Shown: in pieces, positions 4,415 through 51,927 of the stretch | How the letters are laid out: each line of letters starts with the position of its first letter | Numbering within the stretch: position 1 is the stretch's first letter | NCBI RefSeq assembly: GCF_056712565.1 | Contig: NZ_CM160072.1 | Length of the DNA stretch: 64,000 bases | Reading direction: 5' to 3' (one strand) | Notes under the pieces: generated by a model | What the model was told of the DNA's origin: nothing | Seen by the model: the letters and a program-made list of their open reading frames with translations, nothing else | Databases searched by the model: none | Program-made: the position numbers and the translations under genes

Positions 4415-5068
4415 TTAATCTGTCGCGTCTCGCCATTCGCCATTGGCAAGATTATCCAAAGAGTAATCCCCCATCGCATAGCGAATCAGTCGCAGCGTGG
4501 GGAAACCAACATGGGCGGTCATGCGGCGCACCTGGCGATTACGTCCCTCATATAAGGTGATCTTCAGCCAGCTGGTGGGAATACTTTTGCGCTCACGAAT
4601 TGGTGGATTCCGCGGCCATAACCACGCGGGTTCTTCAACCAGCTCCGCGCCTGCGGGCAGGGTAGGGCCATCATTTAAGGTTACGCCATTGCGCAAGGCT
4701 TCAAGTGCGTCTTGTGTGGGAATACCTTCCACCTGCACATAATAGATTTTTCCGGTGCGTTTACCCGGCTGGGTTAAACGCGCCTGCAACGCGCCGTTAT
4801 TGGTCAGCACCAGTAACCCTTCGCTGTCGCGGTCGAGACGACCTGCCGCATACACCCCCTGAACCGGGATGAATTCTTTTAATGTTTTGCGTCCGGCTTC
4901 ATCGGTGAACTGCGGAAGAACATCGTAGGGTTTATTGAACAGGATCACACGCGTGGGCTGGTTTTCAGGTTTACGCCTGGTAGAACGTTGCGAGCTGAAT
5001 CGCTTAACCTGGTGATTTCTAAAAGAAGTTTTTTGCATGGTATTTTCAGAGATTATGAATTGCCGCAT
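4415..5068 (-). CDS. rluE: 23S rRNA pseudouridine synthase RluE
   Basis: 217 aa ORF; RsuA/RluE family motifs ([17 protein letters not shown]); conserved position upstream of icd. Confidence 0.88.
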
Positions 5069-5239
5069 TATAGCCTAATAACGCGCATCTTTCATGACGG
5101 CAAACAATAGGGTAGTATTGACAAGCCAATTACAAATCATTAACAAAAAATTGCTCTAAAGCATCCGTATCGCAGGACGCAAACGCATATGCAACGTGGT
5201 GGTAGACGAGCAAACCAGTAGCGCTCGAAGGAGAGGTGA

Positions 5240-6490
5240 ATGGAAAGTAAAGTAGTTGTTCCGGCACAAGGCAAGAAGATCACCCTGCAAAACGGCAAAC
5301 TCAACGTTCCTGAAAATCCGATTATCCCTTACATTGAAGGTGATGGAATCGGTGTAGATGTAACCCCAGCCATGCTGAAAGTGGTCGACGCTGCAGTTGA
5401 GAAAGCCTATAAAGGCGAGCGTAAAATCTCCTGGATGGAAATTTACACCGGTGAAAAATCCACACAGGTTTATGGTCAGGACGTCTGGTTGCCTGCTGAA
5501 ACCCTTGATCTGATTCGTGAATATCGCGTTGCCATTAAAGGCCCGCTGACCACTCCGGTTGGTGGCGGTATTCGCTCTCTGAACGTTGCCCTGCGCCAGG
5601 AACTGGATCTCTACATCTGCCTGCGTCCGGTACGTTACTATCAGGGCACTCCAAGCCCGGTTAAACACCCTGAACTGACCGATATGGTTATCTTCCGTGA
5701 AAACTCGGAAGACATTTATGCGGGTATCGAATGGAAAGCAGACTCTGCCGACGCTGAGAAAGTGATTAAATTCCTGCGTGAAGAGATGGGCGTGAAGAAA
5801 ATTCGCTTCCCGGAACATTGCGGTATCGGTATTAAGCCGTGTTCGGAAGAAGGCACCAAACGTCTGGTTCGTGCAGCGATCGAATACGCAATTGCTAACG
5901 ATCGTGACTCTGTGACCCTGGTGCACAAAGGCAACATCATGAAGTTCACCGAAGGCGCGTTTAAAGACTGGGGCTACCAACTGGCGCGTGAAGAATTTGG
6001 CGGTGAACTGATCGACGGCGGCCCGTGGCTGAAAGTTAAAAACCCGAATACCGGCAAAGAGATCGTCATTAAAGACGTGATTGCTGATGCATTCCTGCAA
6101 CAGATCCTGCTGCGTCCGGCTGAATATGATGTTATCGCCTGTATGAACCTGAACGGTGACTACATTTCTGACGCCCTGGCAGCGCAGGTTGGTGGTATCG
6201 GTATCGCCCCTGGCGCAAACATCGGTGACGAATGCGCCCTGTTTGAAGCCACCCACGGTACTGCGCCGAAATATGCCGGACAGGACAAAGTAAACCCAGG
6301 CTCTATTATTCTCTCCGCTGAGATGATGCTGCGCCATATGGGTTGGACTGAAGCGGCTGACCTGATTGTTAAAGGTATGGAAGGCGCAATCAATGCCAAG
6401 ACCGTAACCTATGACTTCGAACGTCTGATGGAAGGCGCTAAACTGCTGAAATGTTCAGAGTTTGGTGACGCGATCATCAAGAATATGTAA
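5240..6490 (+). CDS. icd: Isocitrate dehydrogenase (NADP); 3' ~165 bp is the prophage-adjacent copy of the att duplication
   Basis: 416 aa [41 protein letters not shown]...; classic Icd. Confidence 0.95.
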
Positions 6491-6541
6491 TCACTACATG
6501 TGTTAAATATTGAAACGGGCGTATAACACGCCCGTTGTTTT
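6327..6541. repeat. Left copy of the icd 3'-end direct repeat (attL side of prophage)
   Basis: About 215 bp here are repeated with a few mismatches at 53750..53966, including the icd stop codon and terminator hairpin. Confidence 0.85.
6513..6541 (+). terminator. icd rho-independent terminator
   Basis: Hairpin AAACGGGCGTATAACACGCCCGTT followed by GTTTT, 22 bp after the icd stop. Confidence 0.75.
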
Positions 6542-6557
6542 ATGATGATGTAAAATC

Positions 6558-6593
6558 TTCCCCAAAACTTTCCCCAAAACCCTTCCCCAAAAC
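6558..6593. repeat. Three tandem TTCCCCAAAAC repeats, candidate integrase arm-type binding sites
   Basis: TTCCCCAAAAC occurs three times with ~12 bp period between icd terminator and int; one further copy at 53621..53631. Confidence 0.5.
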
Positions 6594-6603
6594 TGGCTAT
6601 TTT

Positions 6604-7746
6604 CTATGCTGTTTTGATATCTACGATAATCCAGTCTTTACCACGATCATCATTGTATCGGTCGGTCATTTTTCTGGATTTATGGCCTAACAACTTTTGC
6701 GTATCCAGACCCTGTTCCCGATATAACCGTTCTGACAGAGATCGCTGCTCATGAAATGTGGGCGCAGTTCCTTGCTCCCATTTTATGCCACATTTTTCCC
6801 GGGCCTTTTTAAAAGCCGTTGTCAGAGTATTCGCAGAAACCTGGTCTCCTCTGTTTGCTTGAGAGGTAGTGTGACGGTAATGGACCAGATATTTACTAAC
6901 AACAGCATCCCTGCACTGAGATATAACTTCACGAAGGGTAATATTCAGAGCATCGCATTTCAGGTTAAGCGGAATAGCAAGTTTTGAACCGGTTTTTTCC
7001 TGAGTAATGTGCAACATGTCGTCCCATATATCAGAGAATTTCAAATTGCAGATATCGCCTAAACGTTGTCCAGTAACAAGAGCAAGTAGCATGCCGCATT
7101 TTAAATAGGGCTGCCGTCTGCTTACGCTGTCAAATATTGCCTGCCATTCGGGCAGTGACAATCTTTGGCGGTTTACTCGATTTCGTGGTTGTTTTGTTGC
7201 CTGCGCTGGGTTAAATCCTGGCGGAACATGTCCTGCGTGTTGTGCTTCTTTGAAGACGTCGATCAACACCATTCTCACGACTTGCGCCATCCTGTTATGA
7301 CCTTCAGCCTTTACAGCATCAATTATTTCGGCAATATCAAGTGCGGTAATATCCTTGAGGTGTTGCATTCCACAATGCTCACGGAAAAGACGAATGGGTT
7401 TGCCTTTTTGCCGATAGGAGTTGGGTCTTAGTTCATTATGTTGCAGCCTGTCCTCTTGGATAGAAATATATTTATCAAGCCATTCTGTCACCGTAATGTC
7501 TGAGCGCCTGCCTTTCATTCTTTCCAGACGCTCATTGACGCTTAATATTTGTCTGGTACGTTGTTCAGCAATAATGGTATTTGCTTCAGTAGCAACTTGT
7601 TTTGCTTCATTCTCATCAGTTCCTAAGCTATGAAAACGACCGGATAGTGGATGTTTGTATTGCCAATATACCTTTCCGGTTCGCTTATCTAATTTGCAAT
7701 ATAAATTGGGTATAGAGATTTTGTGAGATCGGGGTCTAGCAGCCAT
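6604..7746 (-). CDS. int: Phage integrase (tyrosine recombinase)
   Basis: 380 aa ORF directly beside the att repeat; C-terminal R..HxxR..Y-type catalytic region (LGHKSRKMTDRY); lambda-like int-xis arrangement. Confidence 0.88.
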   Translation of the reverse strand: MAARPRSHKISIPNLYCKLDKRTGKVYWQYKHPLSGRFHSLGTDENEAKQVATEANTIIAEQRTRQILSVNERLERMKGRRSDITVTEWLDKYISIQEDRLQHNELRPNSYRQKGKPIRLFREHCGMQHLKDITALDIAEIIDAVKAEGHNRMAQVVRMVLIDVFKEAQHAGHVPPGFNPAQATKQPRNRVNRQRLSLPEWQAIFDSVSRRQPYLKCGMLLALVTGQRLGDICNLKFSDIWDDMLHITQEKTGSKLAIPLNLKCDALNITLREVISQCRDAVVSKYLVHYRHTTSQANRGDQVSANTLTTAFKKAREKCGIKWEQGTAPTFHEQRSLSERLYREQGLDTQKLLGHKSRKMTDRYNDDRGKDWIIVDIKTA

Positions 7747-11376: not shown

Positions 11377-11451
11377 GGCTGAACTCCTGAAAATGGCTGT
11401 GAAAATATCGCCCGCGAAATGCCAGGCTGATTAGGAAAACAGGAAAGGGGG

Positions 11452-11595
11452 TTAGTGAATGCTTTTGCTTGATCTCAGTTTCAGTATTAATATCCATTTT
11501 TTATAAGCGTCGACGGCCTCACGAAACATCTTTTCATCGCCAATAAAAGTGGCGATAGTGAATTTAGTCTGGATAGCCATAATTGTTTGATCCAT
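11452..11595 (-). CDS. kil: Host-killing protein Kil
   Basis: 47 aa [47 protein letters not shown] within the 89 aa tracked ORF; overlaps cIII as in lambda. Confidence 0.85.
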
Positions 11596-11728
11596 TTTTT
11601 GGGACTCCTGGCTGATTAAGTATGTCGATAAGGCGTTTCCATCCGTCACGTAATTTACGGGTGATTCGTTCAAGTAAAGATTCGGAAGGGCAGCCAGCAA
11701 CAGGCCACCCTGCAATGGCATATTGCAT
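11564..11728 (-). CDS. cIII: Anti-FtsH regulator CIII
   Basis: Hand translation gives [54 protein letters not shown] (54 aa); below the 60 aa ORF-track cutoff. Confidence 0.85.
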   Translation of the reverse strand: MQYAIAGWPVAGCPSESLLERITRKLRDGWKRLIDILNQPGVPKNGSNNYGYPD

Positions 11729-11800
11729 GGTGTGCTCCTTATTTATACATAACGAAAAACGCCTCGAGTGAAGCGTAATTGGTATGCGGTAACGCCGCGC

Positions 11801-12169
11801 TCAGGCGGCCTTGATAGTCATATCATCTGAATCAAATATTCCTGATGTATCGATATCGGTAATTCTTATTCCTTCACTACCATCCATTGGAGGCCATCCT
11901 TCCTGACCATTTCCATCATTCCAGTCGAACTCACACACAACACCATATGCATTTAAGTCGCTTGAAATTGCTATAAGCAGAGCATGTTGCGCCAGCATGA
12001 TTAATACAGCATTTAATACAGAGCCGTGTTTATTGAGTCGGTATTCAGAGTCTGACCAGAAATTATTAATCTGGTGAAGTTTTTCCTCTGTCATTACGTC
12101 ATGGTCAATTTCAATTTCTATTGATGCTTTCCAGTCGTAATCAATGATGTATTTTTTGATGTTTGACAT
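11801..12169 (-). CDS. ea10: Lambda Ea10-like protein
   Basis: 122 aa ORF in the lambda ea10 position; I recall this sequence as lambda Ea10. Confidence 0.8.
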   Translation of the reverse strand: MSNIKKYIIDYDWKASIEIEIDHDVMTEEKLHQINNFWSDSEYRLNKHGSVLNAVLIMLAQHALLIAISSDLNAYGVVCEFDWNDGNGQEGWPPMDGSEGIRITDIDTSGIFDSDDMTIKAA

Positions 12170-14072: not shown

Positions 14073-14825
14073 TTATGCTGCAAGTCTCTTAACCCAAGTC
14101 TCTCTTTTGGAGAATGGTAGAACTTGGCTTGATTCATGGAAGAGTAAGGAGAGTTGTTGCATTTGATCACCAATTGCTTCGCTGTCTATAACAACAAATC
14201 TGTTGTTATACTCCTCACTTGAAGCTTTAAGATCAATTAGTTTCCCAAGCAATGAGTAAGCACTATTCCAGCTTCCTCCGTGTTTCACGCTTGATGTAAA
14301 AACGTATTTAGGTATGTCGGTTTTTATTGTTACAGGGACGGTAATTTGATGTCCACTCAAGCCATATACGTTTTCACGAAGAGAAAGTGCGTCTCTAAGC
14401 TCTGTGTGATATAGATAATCAATAACCATACTTTCAAACTTTTCAGCTTGAACTGGCTGATACCAGTCTAACGACAAAGTTGATGCGAGTATACCAGCTC
14501 TAATTATGTTCGATGTAATCGCACCGACATCCTTTTCTGTTGCCCAAGCAATGATTTCTCCTCGAGCATTGAGTTCTGCGCCTTCTTTAAGCAGTAATTG
14601 TCGTATCTCATCAAGTCGTTTTTTGGTAAGCGAGATCCCTCTTGCCTCCATATTCATTAAGGCATCGCATCTGTCACTAACTAAATACCTACCATTGACT
14701 TCACGGATAAAGGCACCGACATGCTCTCCATCATCACAGTAAGTGAATGGACTGATAATTCTCAAGGTCTTGCCTATTGGATGGCATTCGAAACCTAGTT
14801 GTGAGATCACTGTTGAGCACATCAT
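14073..14825 (-). CDS. Unknown protein (250 aa), distal gene of immunity-region operon
   Basis: ORF MMCSTVISQLGFECHPIGKTLRIISPFTYCDDGEH...; AT-rich (~35% GC); start overlaps upstream gene stop by 4 bp; no motif I recognise. Confidence 0.65.
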   Translation of the reverse strand: MMCSTVISQLGFECHPIGKTLRIISPFTYCDDGEHVGAFIREVNGRYLVSDRCDALMNMEARGISLTKKRLDEIRQLLLKEGAELNARGEIIAWATEKDVGAITSNIIRAGILASTLSLDWYQPVQAEKFESMVIDYLYHTELRDALSLRENVYGLSGHQITVPVTIKTDIPKYVFTSSVKHGGSWNSAYSLLGKLIDLKASSEEYNNRFVVIDSEAIGDQMQQLSLLFHESSQVLPFSKRETWVKRLAA

Positions 14826-16875: not shown

Positions 16876-17775
16876 ATGACAAATACAGCAAAAATACTCA
16901 ACTTCTGCAGAGGTAACTTTGCCAAACAGGAGCGTAATGTGGCAGATCTCGATGATGGTTACGCCAGACTATCAAATATGCTGCTTGAGGCTTATTCAGG
17001 CGCAGATCTGACCAAGCGACAGTTTAAAGTGCTGCTTGCCATTCTGCGTAAAACCTATGGATGGAATAAACCAATGGACAGAATCACCGATTCTCAACTT
17101 AGCGAGATTACAAAGTTACCCGTCAAACGGTGCAATGAAGCCAAGTTAGAACTCGTCAGAATGAATATTATCAAGCAGCAAGGCGGCATGTTTGGACCAA
17201 ATAAAAACATCTCAGAATGGTGTATCCCTCAAAACGAGGGAAAATCCCCTAAAACGAGGGATAAAACATCCCTCAAATTGGGGGATTGCTATCCCTCAAA
17301 ACAGGGGGACACAAAAGACACTATTACAAAAGAAAAAAGAAAAGATTATTCGTCAGAGAATTCTGGCGAATCCTCTGACCAGCCAGAAAACGACCTTTCT
17401 GTGGTGAAACCGGATGCTGCAATTCAGAGCGGCAGCAAGTGGGGGACAGCAGAAGACCTGACCGCCGCAGAATGGATGTTTGACATGGTGAAGACCATCG
17501 CGCCATCAGCCAGAAAACCGAATTTTGCAGGGTGGGCTAACGATATCCGCCTGATGCGTGAACGTGACGGACGTAACCATCGCGACATGTGTGTACTGTT
17601 CCGCTGGGCATGCCAGGACAACTTCTGGTCCGGTAACGTGCTGAGCCCGGCCAAACTCCGCGACAAGTGGACCCAGCTCGAAATCAACCGTAACAAGCAA
17701 CAGGCAGGTGTGACAGCCTGCAAACCAAAACTCGACCTGACAAACACTGACTGGATTTACGGGGTGGATTTATGA
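16876..17775 (+). CDS. O: Replication initiator O
   Basis: 299 aa; MTNTAKILNFCRGNFAKQERNVADLDDGYARLSNMLLEAYSGADL...; contains ori iterons. Confidence 0.95.
   Translation: MTNTAKILNFCRGNFAKQERNVADLDDGYARLSNMLLEAYSGADLTKRQFKVLLAILRKTYGWNKPMDRITDSQLSEITKLPVKRCNEAKLELVRMNIIKQQGGMFGPNKNISEWCIPQNEGKSPKTRDKTSLKLGDCYPSKQGDTKDTITKEKRKDYSSENSGESSDQPENDLSVVKPDAAIQSGSKWGTAEDLTAAEWMFDMVKTIAPSARKPNFAGWANDIRLMRERDGRNHRDMCVLFRWACQDNFWSGNVLSPAKLRDKWTQLEINRNKQQAGVTACKPKLDLTNTDWIYGVDL
17224..17350. repeat. ori-lambda: four iterons plus AT-rich region inside O
   Basis: Four ~19 bp ATCCCTCAAAACGAGGGA-type repeats then AAAGAAAAAAGAAAAGATTATT. Confidence 0.9.
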
Positions 17776-18473
17776 AAAACATCGCCGCACAGATGGTTAA
17801 TTTTGACCGTGAGCAGATGCGTCGGATCGCCAACAACATGCCGGAACAGTACGACGAAAAGCCGCAGGTACAGCAGGTAGCGCAGATCATCAACGGTGTG
17901 TTCAGCCAGTTACTGGCAACTTTCCCGGCGAGTCTGGCTAACCGTGACCAGAACGAACTGAACGAAATCCGCCGCCAGTGGGTTCTGGCTTTCCGGGAAA
18001 ACGGGATCACCACAATGGAACAGGTTAACGCAGGAATGCGCGTAGCCCGTCGGCAGAATCGACCATTTCTGCCATCACCCGGGCAGTTTGTTGCATGGTG
18101 CCGGGAAGAAGCATCCGTTATCGCCGGACTGCCAAACGTCAGCGAGCTGGTTGATATGGTTTACGAGTATTGCCGGAAGCGAGGCCTGTATCCGGATGCA
18201 GAGTCTTATCCGTGGAAATCGAACGCGCACTACTGGCTGGTTACCAACCTGTACCAGAACATGCGGGCCAATGCGCTGACTGACGCGGAATTACGACGCA
18301 AGGCTGCCGATGAACTGACCTGTATGACAGCGCGAATTAACCGTGGTGAGACGATACCTGAACCAGTAAAACAACTTCCTGTCATGGGCGGCAGACCTCT
18401 AAATCGTGTTCAGGCGCTGGCGAAGATCGTAGAAATTAAAGCTAAGTTAGGACTGAAAGGAGCAAGTGTATGA
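17772..18473 (+). CDS. P: Replication protein P (helicase loader)
   Basis: 233 aa; MKNIAAQMVNFDREQMRRIANNMPEQYDEKPQVQQVAQIINGV... Confidence 0.95.
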   Translation: MKNIAAQMVNFDREQMRRIANNMPEQYDEKPQVQQVAQIINGVFSQLLATFPASLANRDQNELNEIRRQWVLAFRENGITTMEQVNAGMRVARRQNRPFLPSPGQFVAWCREEASVIAGLPNVSELVDMVYEYCRKRGLYPDAESYPWKSNAHYWLVTNLYQNMRANALTDAELRRKAADELTCMTARINRGETIPEPVKQLPVMGGRPLNRVQALAKIVEIKAKLGLKGASV

Positions 18474-18760
18474 CGGGCAAAGAGGCAATTATTCATTACC
18501 TGGGGACGCATAATAGCTTCTGTGCGCCGGACGTTGCCGCGCTAACAGGCGCAACAGTAACCAGCATAAATCAGGCCGCGGCTAAAATGGCACGGGCAGG
18601 TCTTCTGGTTATCGAAGGTAAGGTCTGGCGAACGGTGTATTACCGGTTTGCTACCAAGGAAGAACGGGAAGGAAAGATGAGCACGAACCTGATTTTTAAG
18701 GAGTGTCGCCAGAGTGCCACGATGAAACGGATATTGGCGGTATATGGAGTTAAAAGATGA
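18470..18760 (+). CDS. ren: Ren (Rex exclusion relief protein)
   Basis: 96 aa; MTGKEAIIHYLGTHNSFCAPDVAALTGATVTSINQAAAKMARAGLLVIEGKVWRTVYYRF... Confidence 0.9.
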   Translation: MTGKEAIIHYLGTHNSFCAPDVAALTGATVTSINQAAAKMARAGLLVIEGKVWRTVYYRFATKEEREGKMSTNLIFKECRQSATMKRILAVYGVKR

Positions 18761-21678: not shown

Positions 21679-22761
21679 TTAGAACTGATAAACCAGACCT
21701 ACAGCGACGATGTCGTCGGTATCAATACCAGCTGTTTTGGTAAACTTACTATCGTCAATTAAGTTGATTTTGTAATCAACAAAAGTGGACATGTTTTTAT
21801 TAAAGTAGTAAGTAGCACCGACATCGACATACTTGACTAAGTCTCGGTCACCATGAACACCAAGGTCTTTACCTTTTGACTGAAGGTAAGCAACAGATGG
21901 ACGCAGACCGAAGTCAAACTGATATTGTGCTACTGCTTCAAAGTTTTGTGCTTTGTTTGCAATATGGTTATTACCAAAAACGGTCATATTCTGAGTTTCA
22001 GAATATGTGGTAGCCAGATAGATATTGTTCGCATCATATTTCAGGCCTGCAGCCCATACTTCCGCATTTTTGCCGGAGGCATTGAATTTGCTCTTACCAT
22101 AGGCGACCTGACCGTCAGTGCGATCTGATTTAGCATAGGTTGCACCCACGCCGAATCCTTCATACTCATAAGTAGTGGAGAAACCGAAACCATCACCATT
22201 GGCTTCAGTTACGTCAGTGCGGTCATTTTTACCCTGATACTGAGCAGCAAAGTTCAGGCCATCGACCAGACCAAAGAAGTCGTTGTTACGATAAGTTGCA
22301 ACACCAGTAGTGCGACCAGTCATGAACACATCTGTTTGGGTCCAGGTATCACCACCGAATTCTGGCAGAACGTCAGTCCACGCACCGATGTCGTATGCTA
22401 CACCGTAGTTACGGCCGTAATCGATTGAGCCGTAATCACCAAATTTCAGGCCTGCAAATGCAAGACGGGTTTTGTCTTTGGAAGAACCTTGAGATTCAGC
22501 ACGGTTGCCTTTGAATTCATATTCCCACTGACCGAAACCAGTCAGTTGATCGTTGATTTGGGTTTCACCTTTGAAGCCAAGACGGGCATAAGTAGTATCA
22601 CCATCATCTGCATCATTAGAGGAGAAGTAGTGCTTGGCATTAACTTTCCCGTATAGATCCAGCTTGTTACTGTCTTTATTATAAATTTCAGCTGCCTGAG
22701 CAGACATCGCCATCAGTACTGATGCAGCTACAGCAGAAATTGCCACTGTTAATTTTTTCAT
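21679..22761 (-). CDS. nmpC: OmpC/NmpC-family outer membrane porin (prophage moron)
   Basis: Signal peptide [24 protein letters not shown]-terminal ...VGLVYQF beta-barrel terminus, porin-like body; inserted between Q and lysis genes on the opposite strand. Confidence 0.88.
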
Positions 22762-23187
22762 TGTACGCCCTTTTTTTGAACTATTATTAAAAAATGATGT
22801 CACTGCGCGATAAATATTCATCTAATCAATGTGATTATTTCAAGATGTAAGTTTTAGTTTCTCATTTAATTTGTGAAGTAGATCTCTATTTTTATCTGAA
22901 CCTTTTCTATCTAATCCTATTCATGGCTCTTGTCTGAACAAAAATAAATCTATTAGCTAATTTATATTAATGGCACTTATTTATAAGTGCTCTATAATTC
23001 TTTAGCTTAATTTAAACAAACTAAAAATAACATTGGAAATTATTAACTGGTTATTTGTTGAAGTTTTCTTATGCATTTGTGGTGGTGTTTTGAACACTCG
23101 GTGGCATTCTCACAAATATCATTTAGTAGTTTACGTACGTAAAAAATTGGTTATGCTGTTAAGAGTGGTTACTTCGTCACACAGCTT

Positions 23188-23220
23188 AAACCCGCCGTCG
23201 AGCGGGTTTTTCCATTTTTT
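23188..23220 (+). terminator. Orphan rho-independent terminator in porin-holin intergenic region
   Basis: AAACCCGCCGTCGAGCGGGTTTTTCCATTTTTT. Confidence 0.5.
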
Positions 23221-23349
23221 GAGTCTCGATATTAGCTGATAACCCAATACCTGAGTTATTCACTGACTCCGAATCTGTTACGTTTCTGCCTTTATTGCGA
23301 TACGTAGTATCCCCTTAATTTACACCCGCTTTGTCTGCGAGGTGGGGTT

Positions 23350-23565
23350 ATGAAATCCATGGATAAGTTAACAACGGGTGTCGCCTATGGTACCTCAGCA
23401 GGTAGTGCCGGGTACTGGTTTTTACAGTTGCTCGATAAAGTCACGCCCTCACAGTGGGCGGCAATAGGTGTGCTGGGTAGCCTGGTATTTGGCCTGCTGA
23501 CGTACCTGACAAACCTTTATTTCAAGATTAAAGAAGATAAGCGCAAGGCTGCGAGAGGTGAATAA
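23350..23565 (+). CDS. S: Class II pinholin (phage 21 S-type), dual-start
   Basis: 71 aa [71 protein letters not shown] with two TM segments. Confidence 0.9.
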
Positions 23566-24062
23566 TGCCTCCATCATTACGAAAAGCCGTTGCTGCTGCT
23601 ATTGGTGGCGGAGCAATTGCTATAGCATCAGTGTTAATCACTGGCCCAAGTGGTAACGATGGTCTGGAAGGTGTCAGCTACATACCATACAAAGATATTG
23701 TTGGTGTATGGACTGTATGTCACGGGCATACAGGAAAAGACATCATGCTCGGTAAAACGTATACCAAAGCAGAATGCAAAGCCCTCCTGAATAAAGACCT
23801 TGCCACGGTCGCCAGACAAATTAACCCGTACATCAAAGTCGATATACCGGAAACAATGCGCGGCGCTCTTTACTCATTCGTTTACAACGTGGGTGCTGGC
23901 AATTTCAGAACATCGACGCTTCTTCGCAAAATAAACCAGGGCGATATCAAAGGCGCATGTGATCAGCTACGTCGCTGGACATATGCTGGCGGTAAGCAAT
24001 GGAAAGGTCTCATGACTCGTCGTGAGATTGAGCGTGAAATCTGTTTGTGGGGTCAGCAATGA
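23565..24062 (+). CDS. R: SAR endolysin (T4 lysozyme-like, phage 21 R-type)
   Basis: 165 aa; N-terminal signal-anchor-release segment [20 protein letters not shown] followed by lysozyme fold. Confidence 0.88.
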
Positions 24063-24520
24063 ACAGAGTAACCGCGATTATCTCCGCTCTGGTTATCTGC
24101 ATCATCGTCTGCCTGTCATGGGCTGTTAATCATTACCGTGATAACGCCATTACCTACAAAGCCCAGCGCGACAAAAATGCCAGAGAACTGACGCTGGCGA
24201 ACGCGGTAATTACTGACATACAGATGCGTCAGCGTGATGTTGCTGCGCTCGATGCAAAATACACGAAGGAGTTAGCTGATGCGAAAGCTGAAAATGATGC
24301 TCTGCGTGATGATGTTGCCGCTGGTCGTCGTCGGTTGCACATCAAAGCAGTCTGTCAGTCAGTGCGTGAAGCCACCACCGCCTCCGGCGTGGATAATGCA
24401 GCCTCCCCCCGACTGGCAGACACCGCTGAACGGGATTATTTCACCCTCAGAGAGAGGCTGATCACTATGCAAAAACAACTGGAAGGAACCCAGAAGTATA
24501 TTAATGAGCAGTGCAGATAG
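24059..24520 (+). CDS. Rz: i-spanin Rz
   Basis: 153 aa from [19 protein letters not shown]... with N-terminal TM and coiled-coil region; overlaps endolysin stop. Confidence 0.85.
24279..24461 (+). CDS. Rz1: o-spanin Rz1 lipoprotein, embedded in Rz in the +1 frame
   Basis: 60 aa; lipobox LPLVVVGC and proline-rich stretch [15 protein letters not shown]. Confidence 0.85.
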
Positions 24521-24551
24521 AGCTGCCCATATCGATGGGCAACTCATGCAA

Positions 24552-24845
24552 TTATTGTGAGCAATACACACGCGCTTCCAGCGGAGTATAAATGCCTAAA
24601 GTAATAAAACCGAGCAATCCATTTACGAATGTTTGCTGGGTTTCTGTTTTAACAACATTTTCTGCACCACCACAAATTTTTGCTGCATCGACAGTTTTCT
24701 TCTGCCCAATTCCCGAAACGAAGAAATGATGGGTGATGGTTTCCTTTGGTGTTACTGCTGTAGGTTTGTTTCCAACAGTAAACGTCTGTTGAGCACATCC
24801 TGTAATAAGCATTGCCAGAGCGGCAGAAAACAACATTTTTTTCAT
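24552..24845 (-). CDS. bor: Bor lipoprotein (serum resistance, lysogenic conversion)
   Basis: 97 aa from MKKMLFSAALAMLITGCAQQTFTVGNKPTAVTPKETITHHFFVSGIGQKKTVDAAKICGG... Confidence 0.9.
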   Translation of the reverse strand: MKKMLFSAALAMLITGCAQQTFTVGNKPTAVTPKETITHHFFVSGIGQKKTVDAAKICGGAENVVKTETQQTFVNGLLGFITLGIYTPLEARVYCSQ

Positions 24846-25325
24846 CTTATTATCCTGCATTGTTAAAAACGGCAGAATCCTATGTGACAACAATTAAACG
24901 ATAGTTAAATGGATTGATGAAAATTAAAACTACACAGGTGGGCTCAGACTATTGGAGGAAGTTGGGGACACTCAGAATCCTGTGGAATGAAATAAACCGG
25001 TCTATCCGTCCATTACCCTTTTAGCTGCGCTGTATCGTCGCCGTATTCCCGCATTAACCATGACCGTAGCCCGACGGGGAATTCCTTCTGCGTGAGTGTG
25101 CGGGAATAATTAAAAACGATGCACACCGGGTTTTTACCGCGTTAATGATTCGCGGGTTTATCCCGGTGCGATGGTGGAAGAAACAGGAAGCTGTATTACA
25201 GAAAGTGCTACTACTGTATCCCGATGCGATGTATGTAATGTGAGTCAGATAATGGCACAGGATGTGGTGATGTGGCAGTCTGGAACACAGGATATATTGT
25301 CAGAATAAGACCCGTAGGAATAAAA

Positions 25326-25652
25326 ATGAAAAGACGCCTTTTACTACTTTTTCTGTTATCTGTCCTGGCAGTGGGATGCTCGCAGCAAAAAGCTGATGAG
25401 CCCCGGCAATTAGTGACGGTGTATCCACGATATCCGGAATATGCTGCAGCAAATTATATCAAGGGGCTGGTTGAGGTTAAGTTCGATATTGGTGCTGATG
25501 GGACTGTGACACGGATCGTTTTTCTCCGCTCAGAGCCTCATAATTTGTTTCGTGATGAAGTGGTGAAGGCCATGGCGAAATGGCGATTTGAAAAGAATCG
25601 CCCCTGTCAGGGAGTGAAGAGACAATTTATCTTTACGCCGTCACGTCCTTGA
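25326..25652 (+). CDS. Putative lipoprotein with TonB C-terminal-like domain
   Basis: 108 aa from MKRRLLLLFLLSVLAVGCSQ (lipobox); YPRYPEYAAANYIKGLVEVKFDIGADGTVTRIV resembles TonB C-terminal domain. Confidence 0.55.
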   Translation: MKRRLLLLFLLSVLAVGCSQQKADEPRQLVTVYPRYPEYAAANYIKGLVEVKFDIGADGTVTRIVFLRSEPHNLFRDEVVKAMAKWRFEKNRPCQGVKRQFIFTPSRP

Positions 25653-26015
25653 TGCTTCCAGGTAGAGAGGGGCTGGAAGCAGGAGAAAAATGAAAGAGCC
25701 AGCGGTTATATTTTTGTCATGGCTGACGAGGAATGATGGAAGAAGGCGTTGTATGCCACACAACGCCTCACTGTTCATTTCTTCTTTTTCTCTGGTGGAA
25801 CCCGATGAATAAGAGTTGCACTGGTTTCCGATGAGATGGCGATATACTCGGGCAAAGTATGCTGGCAGTTTTCCAACTGGTCAAAAATACCTGCTCTCGT
25901 CTGTTGCAATGCCTGCAGCATGCGGCGGCAATGCGCCTTGCTTTTACTAACCATCTTTCCTTCCTCTATCAGTCGCTGCGTGAACTCATCATGGAATACC
26001 AGGTAAATGCGGATG

Positions 26016-26267
26016 TTATCGGTTTTGGCTACGCAGCATAGTACAAAACGGACAGGTGCATCCCGGGACGGGGGAGGCGTCACATGTCCCTGTGATGGTT
26101 GTTCCGGGTAATGTACTGTGTGGGGCATAAAAATGTCCGATAATTTTACTTTCTACCGCAGTTAGTTGATTCGTTGGTCCTGGTAGCACATTGGGCGAGG
26201 ATTTAAATGCCAGGCAACTGAAGGATGATGTCGCAAGGGAGATAGCGAGAATATTTCTGATTTTCAT
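26016..26267 (-). CDS. Hypothetical small secreted cysteine-rich protein
   Basis: 83 aa from MKIRNILAISLATSSFSCLA (signal peptide); overlaps an alternative 117 aa ORF 25775..26128 in another frame. Confidence 0.3.
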   Translation of the reverse strand: MKIRNILAISLATSSFSCLAFKSSPNVLPGPTNQLTAVESKIIGHFYAPHSTLPGTTITGTCDASPVPGCTCPFCTMLRSQNR

Positions 26268-26415
26268 TTGATGATGCCTCTGTGTGAAATGACGGTAAAC
26301 GACGCACTTGTGCCGGCACATAATAGCAAGCACCATAATAGATCAGATTCGATTCTTGCTGTAAGTGATAATTATTCTCGTTTTCGGGTCCTTTCCGTCG
26401 ATCCAACAGGTTACG

Positions 26416-26427
26416 GGGCGGCGACCT
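26416..26427. other. cosN 12-nt cohesive end site GGGCGGCGACCT
   Basis: ACGGGGCGGCGACCTCGCGGTTTTTCACTATTTATGAAAATTTT matches the lambda cos left end; 188 bp upstream of nu1, as in lambda. Confidence 0.85.
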
Positions 26428-26603
26428 CGCGGTTTTTCACTATTTATGAAAATTTTTCAGGGAAAATCGTGTCGGTACTTCTCGAATATAACTTTTTGTT
26501 TTTTTTAATATTGCATCCGTAAAGGTCCGACATGAAAGTGTCCGAAAATGCCTTTTTCTGGCGTTTTCATGTCGGGCCTTGTATTTGATAATGGGTTGTT
26601 TTC

Positions 26604-27152
26604 ATGAAGGTTAATAAAAAGAGGCTTGCCGAAATTTTCAACGTGGACCCGCGGACGATTGAACGCTGGCAGTCTCAGGGACTCCCTTGCGTCTCCAAAG
26701 GCAGTAAGGGCATTGAATCTGTATTTGATACTGCCATGGCAATTCAGTGGTATGCGCAGAGGGAAACTGATATCGAAAACGAAAAGCTCCGCAAAGAACT
26801 GGCCGATTTGCGTGCGGCAGCGGAGTCAGATTTACAACCCGGCACCATTGACTATGAACGCTACCGGCTCACAAAAGCGCAGGCAGATGCGCAGGAACTG
26901 AAAAATGCCCGTGAAGACGGAGTAGTGCTGGAAACTGAACTGTTTACCTTCATTCTGCAACGTGTGGCACAGGAGATTTCGGGGATACTTGTGCGTGTGC
27001 CGTTGACATTACAGCGTAAATATCCGGACATTTCACCATCACACCTTGATGTGGTGAAAACTGAAATCGCGAAAGCCTCCAATGTTGCAGCTAAGGCCGG
27101 TGAAAACGTGGGCGGGTGGATCGATGATTTCAGACGCGCAGAAGGCAGCTAA
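26604..27152 (+). CDS. nu1: Terminase small subunit Nu1
   Basis: 182 aa; [28 protein letters not shown]... and AEIENEKLR...[26 protein letters not shown] match lambda Nu1. Confidence 0.92.
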
Positions 27153-35557: not shown

Positions 35558-36298
35558 ATGCCAACACCAAATCCTCGGGCACCGGTGAAAGGGGCCGGGA
35601 CCACACTGTGGGTTTATAACGGGAGCGGCGACCCTTATGCAAACCCGCTTTCAGACAATGACTGGTCGCGTCTGGCAAAAATTAAAGACCTGACGCCCGG
35701 CGAACTGACCGCTGAGTCCTATGACGACAGTTATCTCGATGATGAAGATGCGGACTGGACCGCGACCGGGCAGGGGCAGAAATCCGCCGGAGATACCAGC
35801 TTCACGCTGGCGTGGATGCCCGGAGAGCAGGGGCAGCAGGCGCTGCTGGCGTGGTTTAATGAAGGTGATACCCGTGCCTATAAAATCCGCTTCCCGAACG
35901 GCACGGTCGATGTGTTCCGTGGCTGGGTCAGCAGTATCGGTAAGGCGGTGACGGCGAAGGAAGTGATCACCCGTACGGTGAAGGTCACCAATGTGGGCCG
36001 TCCGTCAATGGCAGAAGATCGCAGTACGGTGACGGCGGCAACCGGTATGACCGTGACGCCTGCCAGCTCCTCGGTGGTGAAAGGGCAGAGCACCACGCTG
36101 ACCGTGGCCTTCCAGCCGGAGGGCGCAACTGACAAGAGCTTCCGTGCGGTGTCAGCGGATAAAACAAAAGCCACCGTGTCGGTCAGTGGTATGACCATCA
36201 CCGTGAACGGCGTTGCTGCAGGCAAGGTCAACATTCCGGTTGTATCCGGTAATGGTGAACTTGCTGCGGTTGCAGAAATCACTGTCACCGACAGTTAA
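35558..36298 (+). CDS. V: Major tail tube protein V (with C-terminal Ig-like domain)
   Basis: 246 aa from [45 protein letters not shown]... Confidence 0.93.
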
Positions 36299-48291: not shown

Positions 48292-48382
48292 AAAAAGGTG
48301 AGCTGTATATGCAACGGAGGAAGAAACCCCGTTGCTGGAAGCCAGGAAAAAGTATCGGGTGTTGCTGTCCTCGGATGTTGTG

Positions 48383-51886: not shown

Positions 51887-51908
51887 TATAGCACAACCTA
51901 TACAAAAT

Positions 51909-51927
51909 GAAAATGATTATCATTAGC
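51909..51927. promoter_or_regulatory. Fur box
   Basis: GAAAATGATTATCATTAGC matches 16 of 19 positions of GATAATGATAATCATTATC, in the sitA promoter region. Confidence 0.7.

Follow-up and report, generated by a model that had tools for sequence, protein, structure and literature searches.

Siderophores, vitamin B12, colicins, microcins and many phages enter the cell through TonB-dependent transporters (TBDTs), as do conjugates of siderophores with antibiotics, and phage proteins that obstruct one of these transporters from inside the cell have been described. Llp of phage T5, an outer membrane (OM) lipoprotein, blocks FhuA from within the periplasm (bioRxiv 10.64898/2026.03.26.714494). Together with the Cor proteins of phi80, N15 and HK022 it represents a group of small phage lipoproteins of the OM inner leaflet that act on FhuA periplasmically and block phages, colicin M and ferrichrome (bioRxiv 10.64898/2026.03.26.714494, PMC11436027). 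The contact between TonB and the transporters is also well described: strand 226-231 of TonB pairs in parallel with the Ton box of the transporter, F230 lies beside the conserved Ton-box valine, and in free Escherichia coli TonB an extra C-terminal strand must exchange for the Ton box (PMC6118199). As cited in PMC9841981, this contact can be disturbed, either by dominant-negative periplasmic fragments of TonB, which have no anchor and inhibit transport by FhuA and FecA (Howard et al., 2001), or by a Ton-box pentapeptide, which blocks the entry of colicins and phi80 (Tuckman & Osburne, 1992). The locus analysed here lies in a stretch of 64,000 nucleotides (the window) of contig NZ_CM160072.1, NCBI RefSeq assembly GCF_056712565.1, where the right end of the late region of a lambdoid prophage of the phage 21 type (24552-26427) carries a gene for a lipoprotein of 108 amino acids (aa) whose mature part is a TonB C-terminal domain (TonB_C). 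The reading that is favoured here, with a probability of about 0.4, is that this protein is a TonB decoy tethered to the OM that acts in the manner of T5 Llp or Cor.

An earlier note on the locus, made from the sequence alone, had described the gene as that of a second lipoprotein with a domain resembling the TonB C-terminus, and the profile, structure and lipobox comparisons agree that the domain is a genuine one. The protein consists of a predicted signal peptide (residues 1-17), Cys18, a tether of eight residues and a domain equivalent to TonB 153-235, and its N-terminus, MKRRLLLLFLLSVLAVGC followed by SQQ, conforms to the PROSITE-type lipobox rule with Ser at position +2. It matches Pfam TonB_C (PF03544) at 7.3e-13 (49.2 bits, cut-off 24.6) and NCBIfam tonB_Cterm (TIGR01352) at 1.8e-12 (47.4 bits, cut-off 27.1), and phmmer retrieved the E. 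coli TonB chains 1u07, 2gsk_B and 2grx_C at about 1e-14, gapless over 80 residues. In the gapless alignment to residues 151-230 of E. coli TonB, query residue n corresponds to TonB n+127 and the identity is 38-42%. TonB residues Y163, F180, F202 and W213 are kept, and in the family alignment Y36-P37 (Y163-P164 of TonB), F53, F75, W86 and F103 (F230) are invariant or nearly so. The strand that in TonB pairs with the Ton box (226-231) is present as RQFIFT, with F103 at the place of F230, and the basic residue that opens it is conserved across the phage family. An AlphaFold2 model, built from an alignment of 22 sequences, gave a predicted local distance difference test score (pLDDT) above 96 for the domain, with two helices on a three-stranded sheet. 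The best PDB matches of this model in Foldseek were again 1u07, 2gsk_B and 2grx_C, with target-normalised TM scores of 0.90-0.92 and root-mean-square deviations of 0.9-1.5 A, the values for TonB bound to BtuB (2gsk_B) and to FhuA (2grx_C) being 1.0 and 0.9 A, respectively. Similarity to TonB C-terminal domains of known structure, which had been named beforehand as a check on which the proposal could fail, was thus found in the model.

The protein is nevertheless not a TonB, because its scores against the full-length TonB equivalogs (NCBIfam PRK10819) are 45-69 bits, far below the cut-offs of 265-448, with only residues 19-104 aligned to TonB ~150-240, and because it has neither a membrane helix nor a proline-rich spacer. 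Compared with the E. coli TonB C-terminal domain (~150-239; 1U07, 1XX3, 2GSK, 2GRX), the fold, the YP motif, the aromatic core and the strand with F230 are common to both. In contrast, the phage protein lacks the N-terminal transmembrane helix and spacer, and hence coupling to ExbB/ExbD, and would be anchored by lipid at the opposite, outer, membrane. It also ends at the equivalent of TonB 235, four residues short of TonB, with a tail that contains proline and takes the place of the stretch from which free E. coli TonB builds its occluding extra C-terminal strand. What the gene encodes is, in short, a TonB C-terminal domain on a predicted lipid anchor with an eight-residue tether.

The gene is under strong purifying selection when set against its diverged homologues, and its conservation is far beyond chance. 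Compared with the allele of 72% identity carried by JLK-2012 and Stx1a phages, the ratio of non-synonymous to synonymous change (dN/dS) is 0.12 at a proportion of synonymous differences (pS) of 0.65. This result bears on the database names 'partial tonB-like membrane protein', in the style of the EDL933 annotation, and 'TonB fragment', according to which the gene would be a functionless, decaying piece of a captured host tonB. Two-thirds of TonB are indeed missing, but such a low ratio in the face of near-saturated synonymous change, the constant length of 108-111 aa across homologues of 38-72% identity and the acquisition of a lipobox led to the rejection of this explanation, which is scarcely credible. 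The lipobox Cys is invariant in phage-type homologues over the same range of identity, always with Ser or Thr at +2, and an exhaustive HMMER search identified further short single-domain relatives (~100-135 aa, 31-46% identity), many with a lipobox; relatives are also found in Klebsiella and Enterobacter prophages. Among 5426 complete E. coli genomes, 1616 (~30%) carry the gene, 1224 of them with the allele of the window and 392 with the ~73% allele typical of enterohaemorrhagic E. coli (EHEC), and in all of the carriers sampled it is listed as intact over the matched stretch. The earlier remark that the gene is not a standard lambda gene therefore holds for lambda itself, but not for phage 21, where it is a standard annotated gene (CPT_21_73; annotated as 'TonB family protein'). 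Its presence there and in 1616 of the 5426 genomes means that the observation of the gene is not new; new are the purifying selection, the conserved lipobox, the recurrent position after the lysis genes, the Fur-type promoters of homologues and, next to it, an unannotated gene for a Cys-rich protein.

The recurrent position is seen in four unrelated phage backbones, namely phage 21, the JLK-2012/Stx1a phages, Klebsiella phage ST13-OXA48phi12.4 and a group of HNH-terminase contigs with the homologue P0037, in all of which the gene directly follows the spanin genes, precedes HNH or terminase and lies on the late-gene strand. It is probably this position that gave rise to the label of PHROG 1267, 'Rz-like spanin', which the protein matches at 5e-43, although the members of that family are lipoproteins with a TonB_C domain. 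Taken literally, the label would make it a lysis accessory or spanin-type protein expressed from the late transcript only, and a lipoprotein located directly after Rz/Rz1 on the strand of the late operon in every phage examined would fit such a role. However, each of these phages has its own spanin gene or genes, with a separate Rz/Rz1 pair in the window, the mature protein is a globular TonB_C domain and not a short proline-rich o-spanin, and homologues have a regulated promoter of their own. The label was rejected on the first two grounds, because of which it is most simply a positional annotation that was propagated; a spanin function is very improbable.

A different alternative arises from the company that the gene keeps. 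In the window it is clustered with two genes for small envelope lipoproteins, iss/bor and the Cys-rich gene, and it is enriched in extraintestinal and enterohaemorrhagic lineages of E. coli. The TonB C-terminal domain is reported to have affinity for peptidoglycan. The protein could thus be an envelope or virulence lipoprotein without any TonB function, in which the TonB_C fold binds peptidoglycan or protein as a link between the OM and the wall and contributes to envelope robustness or, like Bor/Iss, to resistance against serum and complement. The linkage of the gene to bor is not obligatory, however, since the JLK-2012, Klebsiella phage and P0037 groups carry it without bor, and an envelope tether does not predict a conserved Ton-box-pairing strand or an iron-type operator. 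This explanation is unlikely, and the iss/bor and Cys-rich genes are better regarded as cargo independent of the TonB_C gene.

The operator just mentioned became apparent from the comparison of alleles and homologues. The sequence ATTGTYAGAATAAGAC is kept between the two E. coli alleles, which share only ~71% of their nucleotides, and contains a putative extended -10 element, TGTCAGAAT, of a promoter that would belong to the TonB_C gene itself. At the corresponding place, homologues have TGTTAGTAT or TGATAGTAT and, directly after this extended -10 and ~29-38 nt before the start codon, a Fur-type operator. The clearest case is the P0037 group (L101-L108), with a perfect 7-1-7 Fur box, TGATAAT[T/C]ATTATCA, at -29, which is the only match without mismatches to that motif in ~300 kb of fetched loci. 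The Klebsiella group has GATAATGTTGATTATCATT there (12-14 of 19 positions of the 19-mer Fur consensus), and E. coli allele 2 a perfect palindrome, AGAATAAG-A-CTTATTCT (13/19). In the allele of the window, the -10 is followed only by the left half of the operator palindrome seen in allele 2, AGAATAAGAC; a 13-nt deletion has removed the right half-site, so that TGTCAGAAT-AAGAC directly precedes the ribosome-binding site. As a check on the scoring with the 19-mer consensus, which was applied to the window and to the sites of the Klebsiella group, the best score in the window (17/19) fell on a site at 51909 (51903-51927), upstream of sitA. Judged by these motifs, the family looks like iron-regulated cargo expressed in lysogens. 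There is a precedent for such cargo in lambdoid prophages, as the stx1 promoter is repressed by iron. The homologues of the TonB_C gene are likewise late-region cargo with an own promoter that a Fur-type operator appears to overlap, whereas the allele of the window has lost half of the site. For this allele, expression by read-through of the late transcript is also possible. A non-phage member of the family was encountered in chromosomal loci L009-L011: P0041, a TonB_C lipoprotein of 133 aa with a lipobox, is encoded between ahpC and a GST gene and has a Fur-like site (15/19 by hand count) just upstream. In P0041 there is a hint that a cellular family of short, iron-regulated TonB_C lipoproteins was the source of the phage genes.

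Taken together, the features of the protein suggest the following decoy model. After lipidation at Cys18, the eight-residue tether would hold the TonB_C domain at the periplasmic face of the TBDTs, that is, given an OM anchor and so short a tether, where TonB docks. There the domain would catch the Ton boxes of transporters, or of incoming colicins, by the same type of beta-strand pairing that TonB uses. As the lipoprotein could transmit no energy, it would be a competitive decoy, and both the TonB-dependent entry of bacteriocins and phages and the flux of siderophores would be damped. The own promoter and the Fur-type operator in most homologues imply that the protein would be made at low iron, when the transporters are derepressed. 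Some support for the pairing came from an AlphaFold2 run in which the mature protein was fused through a 25-residue Gly-Ser linker to residues 1-20 of BtuB, where exactly the Ton box, DTLVVT, was predicted as a beta-strand; the mean pLDDT of the 10-residue block with the Ton box was 67, compared with 40-46 for the linker. The idea put forward in the earlier note, interference with TonB-dependent uptake or with phage and colicin entry, is made more plausible by the predicted OM tether, the conserved Ton-box strand, the Fur-type promoters of homologues and the predicted Ton-box pairing, and stands as a somewhat strengthened but unproven hypothesis. The likeness to Llp and Cor, whose function has been demonstrated, is one of functional analogy only. 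The TonB_C lipoprotein has no sequence or fold relationship to them and matches no Cor or Llp family in PHROG and nothing in PADLOC. Moreover, Llp and Cor specifically hit FhuA, the receptor of their own phages, whereas the TonB_C lipoprotein would act on the Ton box, which is common to many transporters.

Several observations weigh against the decoy model. Three residues implicated in contacts with the Ton box or the plug are not conserved (Q160 of TonB is replaced by Tyr, R158 by Thr and R166 by Tyr), and the fusion model comes from a single uncontrolled run of moderate confidence that gave no coordinates for the strand partner of the Ton box. In the allele of the window, the upstream region of the gene has no good -35, retains only the left operator half and scores at most 10/19 against the Fur consensus, and the Fur-like motif could bind another regulator, as a similar motif is found beside cos. 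A search of the literature found no study of a phage lipoprotein with a TonB domain, and no phenotype is known. The receptor of phage 21 is LamB, which is not a TBDT (PMC11336670). Exclusion of its own kind at the level of the receptor can therefore not be the benefit. Also awkward is the cost, since an inhibitor of uptake that is made under iron scarcity would deprive the host of iron. Carrier strains such as CFT073, UTI89 and Nissle rely on uptake of iron through TonB, and sixty years of work with phage 21 lysogens are not known to have yielded a report of resistance to T1, phi80 or colicins. It follows that any inhibition must be weak, conditional or poorly expressed from the window allele.

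Alternatively, the protein could act on the Ton system in another way, either by pairing with ExbD or with host TonB at its C-terminal domain, so that the energy transducer is tethered or mis-localised, or positively, for example by pre-organising the transporters; its role would then be to modulate iron uptake by the lysogen and not to exclude phages or colicins. C-terminal fragments of TonB crystallise as dimers with several interfaces (PMC7014051), and the C-terminus of TonB cross-links to ExbD (PMC11658791). The Fur-type promoters of homologues link the gene to iron physiology in general, and P0041, with its lipobox and Fur-like site outside any phage, suggests a cellular role that was later borrowed by phages. 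On the other hand, such heterodimers are hypothetical, the TonB dimers seen in crystals are reported to be absent in vivo (PMC3005593), and the AlphaFold2 fusion favoured pairing with the Ton box. A partnership of this kind is possible but rather unlikely, and the decoy model is retained. Its boldest form is more tentative: an OM-anchored mimic of the C-terminal domain of host TonB, induced by iron starvation in most lineages, would jam the Ton boxes of many TBDTs at once and represent a new class of broad-spectrum exclusion or immunity against TonB-dependent phages, colicins and microcins, and at the same time a brake on siderophore uptake, distinct from the receptor-specific Llp and Cor. If true, competition in the gut would be affected, including the microcin warfare of Nissle and uropathogenic E. 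coli, as would host range in phage therapy and susceptibility to Trojan-horse antibiotics, and the protein would be a natural proof of concept for inhibition targeted at the TonB box. Should the decoy model prove wrong, only prophage cargo of an ordinary kind would be left in the region.

The elements that surround the gene are listed in Table 1. All those named in the earlier note were found where it had placed them, including the position of the whole group between the lysis cassette and cos, bounded in the window by the end of Rz and the mapped right end of phage 21.

Table 1. Features of the prophage and its late-region right end (positions in the 64,000-nt window; ORF, open reading frame; IS, insertion sequence; SD, Shine-Dalgarno sequence)
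Feature	Position	Strand	Basis or remark
IS insertions and broken genes of the prophage	328-1541, 4542-6793, 17539-18752, ~14099-14800, 35558-36294		CFT073 annotation coordinates
S21 pinholin	23350-23565		
SAR endolysin	23565-24062		
Rz	24059-24520		
Rz1	24279-24461		
iss/bor, serum-resistance OM lipoprotein, 97 aa, lipobox LITGC	24552-24845	-	Pfam, PHROG, RefSeq, phage 21 CPT_21_71
bor/iss upstream block (promoter/leader region)	25023-25135, reaching ~25194 in some phages		conservation
Candidate extended -10 (TGTCAGAAT) for a promoter of the TonB_C gene itself	25298-25306	+	allele comparison
108-aa TonB_C lipoprotein	25326-25652 (327 bp)	+	profile, PDB, fold, dN/dS, lipobox
Stretch of ~760 bp with small ORFs only			between the 108-aa TonB_C gene and cos
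59-aa ORF, candidate, strong ribosome-binding site GAGGAAGGAAAG-ATG	25775-25954	-	PHROG 4843, 3e-46
60-aa ORF, 'hypothetical protein'	25859-26041	+	RefSeq; phage 21 CPT_21_75
83-aa Cys-rich small secreted protein, probable lipoprotein	26016-26267	-	diverged homologues, dN/dS, lipobox rule, good SD
Fur-box-like AT-rich palindrome, 15/19, core GAGAATAATTATCA	26367-26385	.	~100 nt upstream of Cys-rich gene, just left of cosQ
cosQ	26386-26392	+	phage 21 annotation mapped on the window
cosN cohesive end GGGCGGCGACCT	26416-26427	+	ends of phage 21 mapped on the window (right end at 26415, left end from 26416)
Nu1-like small terminase gene	from 26604		

The first of the neighbours, which the earlier note had called Bor, is a full-length member of the Bor family: the ORF 24552-24893 on the minus strand holds the gene, whose real start (MKKMLF) is at 24845, and the product matches Pfam Lambda_Bor (PF06291) over profile positions 1-75 of 75 (1.1e-30, 106 bits) and PHROG 260 at 4e-59, and has a lipobox that fits the PROSITE-type rule. 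The allele is that of Iss, in agreement with its RefSeq name, 'increased serum survival lipoprotein Iss', and there is nothing unusual about it. As in Bor of lambda and Iss of ColV plasmids and prophages, the gene lies after Rz on the opposite strand and has its own conserved upstream block; the TonB_C lipoprotein has no sequence relationship to Bor. The heading of lysogenic conversion that had been given to the whole group is established for Bor/Iss, and for Bor/Iss only. The upstream block (~110-170 nt) recurs in 432 phage records, those of lambda, HK629 and VT2-Sakai among them. Its place is always directly before bor, and the HK629 record has a minus-strand promoter annotated inside it. 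Between the window and JLK-2012 the block is ~95% identical, whereas the neighbouring TonB_C gene is only ~71% identical. The segment 25020-25215 contains a long inverted repeat, ATTCCCGCA...TGCGGGAAT, and on the plus strand has a predicted folding energy of -67 kcal/mol (z = -2.8; none of 200 shuffles folded as stably). Both bor and its upstream block are ordinary and already known. Upstream of the TonB_C gene, the annotated ORF CPT_21_72 (25171-25308, plus strand) was considered and rejected as probably no gene, because in the alignment of the window with JLK-2012 it is poorly conserved and interrupted by indels that break the frame.

On the other side of the TonB_C gene, the 700 bp from 25653 to 26355 occur only in prophages of the 21 type and are at least 99% identical in 1201 of 1231 carrier genomes, which makes divergence tests impossible for most of the ORFs. 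The two overlapping minus-strand ORFs that had been pointed out there, 25775-26128 and 26016-26336, do exist, and the second, in which an internal ATG at 26267 gives a Cys-rich protein with a signal peptide, is the sole ORF of the segment with diverged homologues. Full-length homologues of 54-78% identity are found in E. coli, Citrobacter, Klebsiella and Salmonella, and a dN/dS of 0.17-0.20 at saturated synonymous sites places this ORF, like the TonB_C gene, under strong purifying selection, so that the signal-peptide ORF singled out beforehand has turned out to be a real, conserved gene. An SD of the form AGAGG is located 9 nt before the ATG. The protein is probably a lipoprotein, given that Cys18 is invariant in SSFSC and conforms to the lipobox rule, and it has three further invariant Cys in a C-terminal motif, GTCDASPVPGCxCPFCTMLRS; no family match was obtained in Pfam, NCBIfam, PHROG or PADLOC. 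In Salmonella enterica subsp. indica the homologue adjoins a Bor homologue, an omptin and a NEL effector, and in Klebsiella it adjoins a Fur-family regulator and CobW, beside a cos-like end. The gene is unannotated in RefSeq CFT073 and in the curated phage 21 record, both of which call plus-strand ORFs, one of them (25859-26041) overlapping it. It thus appears that the actual gene between the TonB_C gene and cos is this minus-strand lipoprotein gene and not the plus-strand ORFs. The overlapping 60-aa ORF, which covers 26 nt of the 3' end of the Cys-rich gene, has a weak ribosome-binding site and no homologue in related loci, and is probably not the real gene of its stretch. The 59-aa ORF has only near-identical or frameshifted relatives, its start is not kept in variant alleles, and the Salmonella and Klebsiella loci with the Cys-rich gene have no counterpart of it. 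The small RNA svsR of strain NC101 was also considered for this segment and rejected, as it is located in cI.

The palindrome to the left of cosQ ranks third among the Fur matches of the 64-kb window, and Klebsiella locus L014 has a related site (13/19) at the corresponding relative place. Its core, GAGAATAATTATCA, recurs in L101-L107, which belong to an unrelated group of phages, with the HNH gene on one side and the small-terminase gene (terS) on the other (at ~5121 in L101, L102, L104 and L107). A Fur site, an IHF or packaging site, and a promoter or operator of the leftward Cys-rich gene are all candidates for its function. A scan for promoters and terminators found none that is convincing for the TonB_C gene (4 promoters against 3.2 expected, 6 terminators against 2.1), an Rfam scan of 22800-26700 with E values up to 1 returned three chance-level matches to unrelated families, and PADLOC gave no match for the four proteins of the region.

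The 2.3 kb from 24400 to 26700 are 100% identical to the corresponding region of CFT073, Nissle 1917, S88, UM146, ATCC 11775 and other strains and, up to cos, to classic phage 21 (OL657228); the coordinates of the window match CFT073 from 1398329 on. The prophage contains two IS3-family and one IS21-family insertions, a split excisionase gene, a pseudogenised LexA-family (cI-like) repressor gene and a frameshifted tail gene. It is thus probably defective, and its cargo genes would therefore persist as host genes. Further envelope cargo is present in the form of an OmpC/NmpC-like porin gene (21679-22761, minus strand), located between the Q antiterminator and holin genes as in DLP12. In the early region of the prophage, a gene for the superinfection exclusion protein SieB is annotated at 11446-12027. 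The genes of the iron/manganese transporter SitABCD abut the right end of the prophage (window position 48379 onwards), with sitD and sitC annotated in the region examined.

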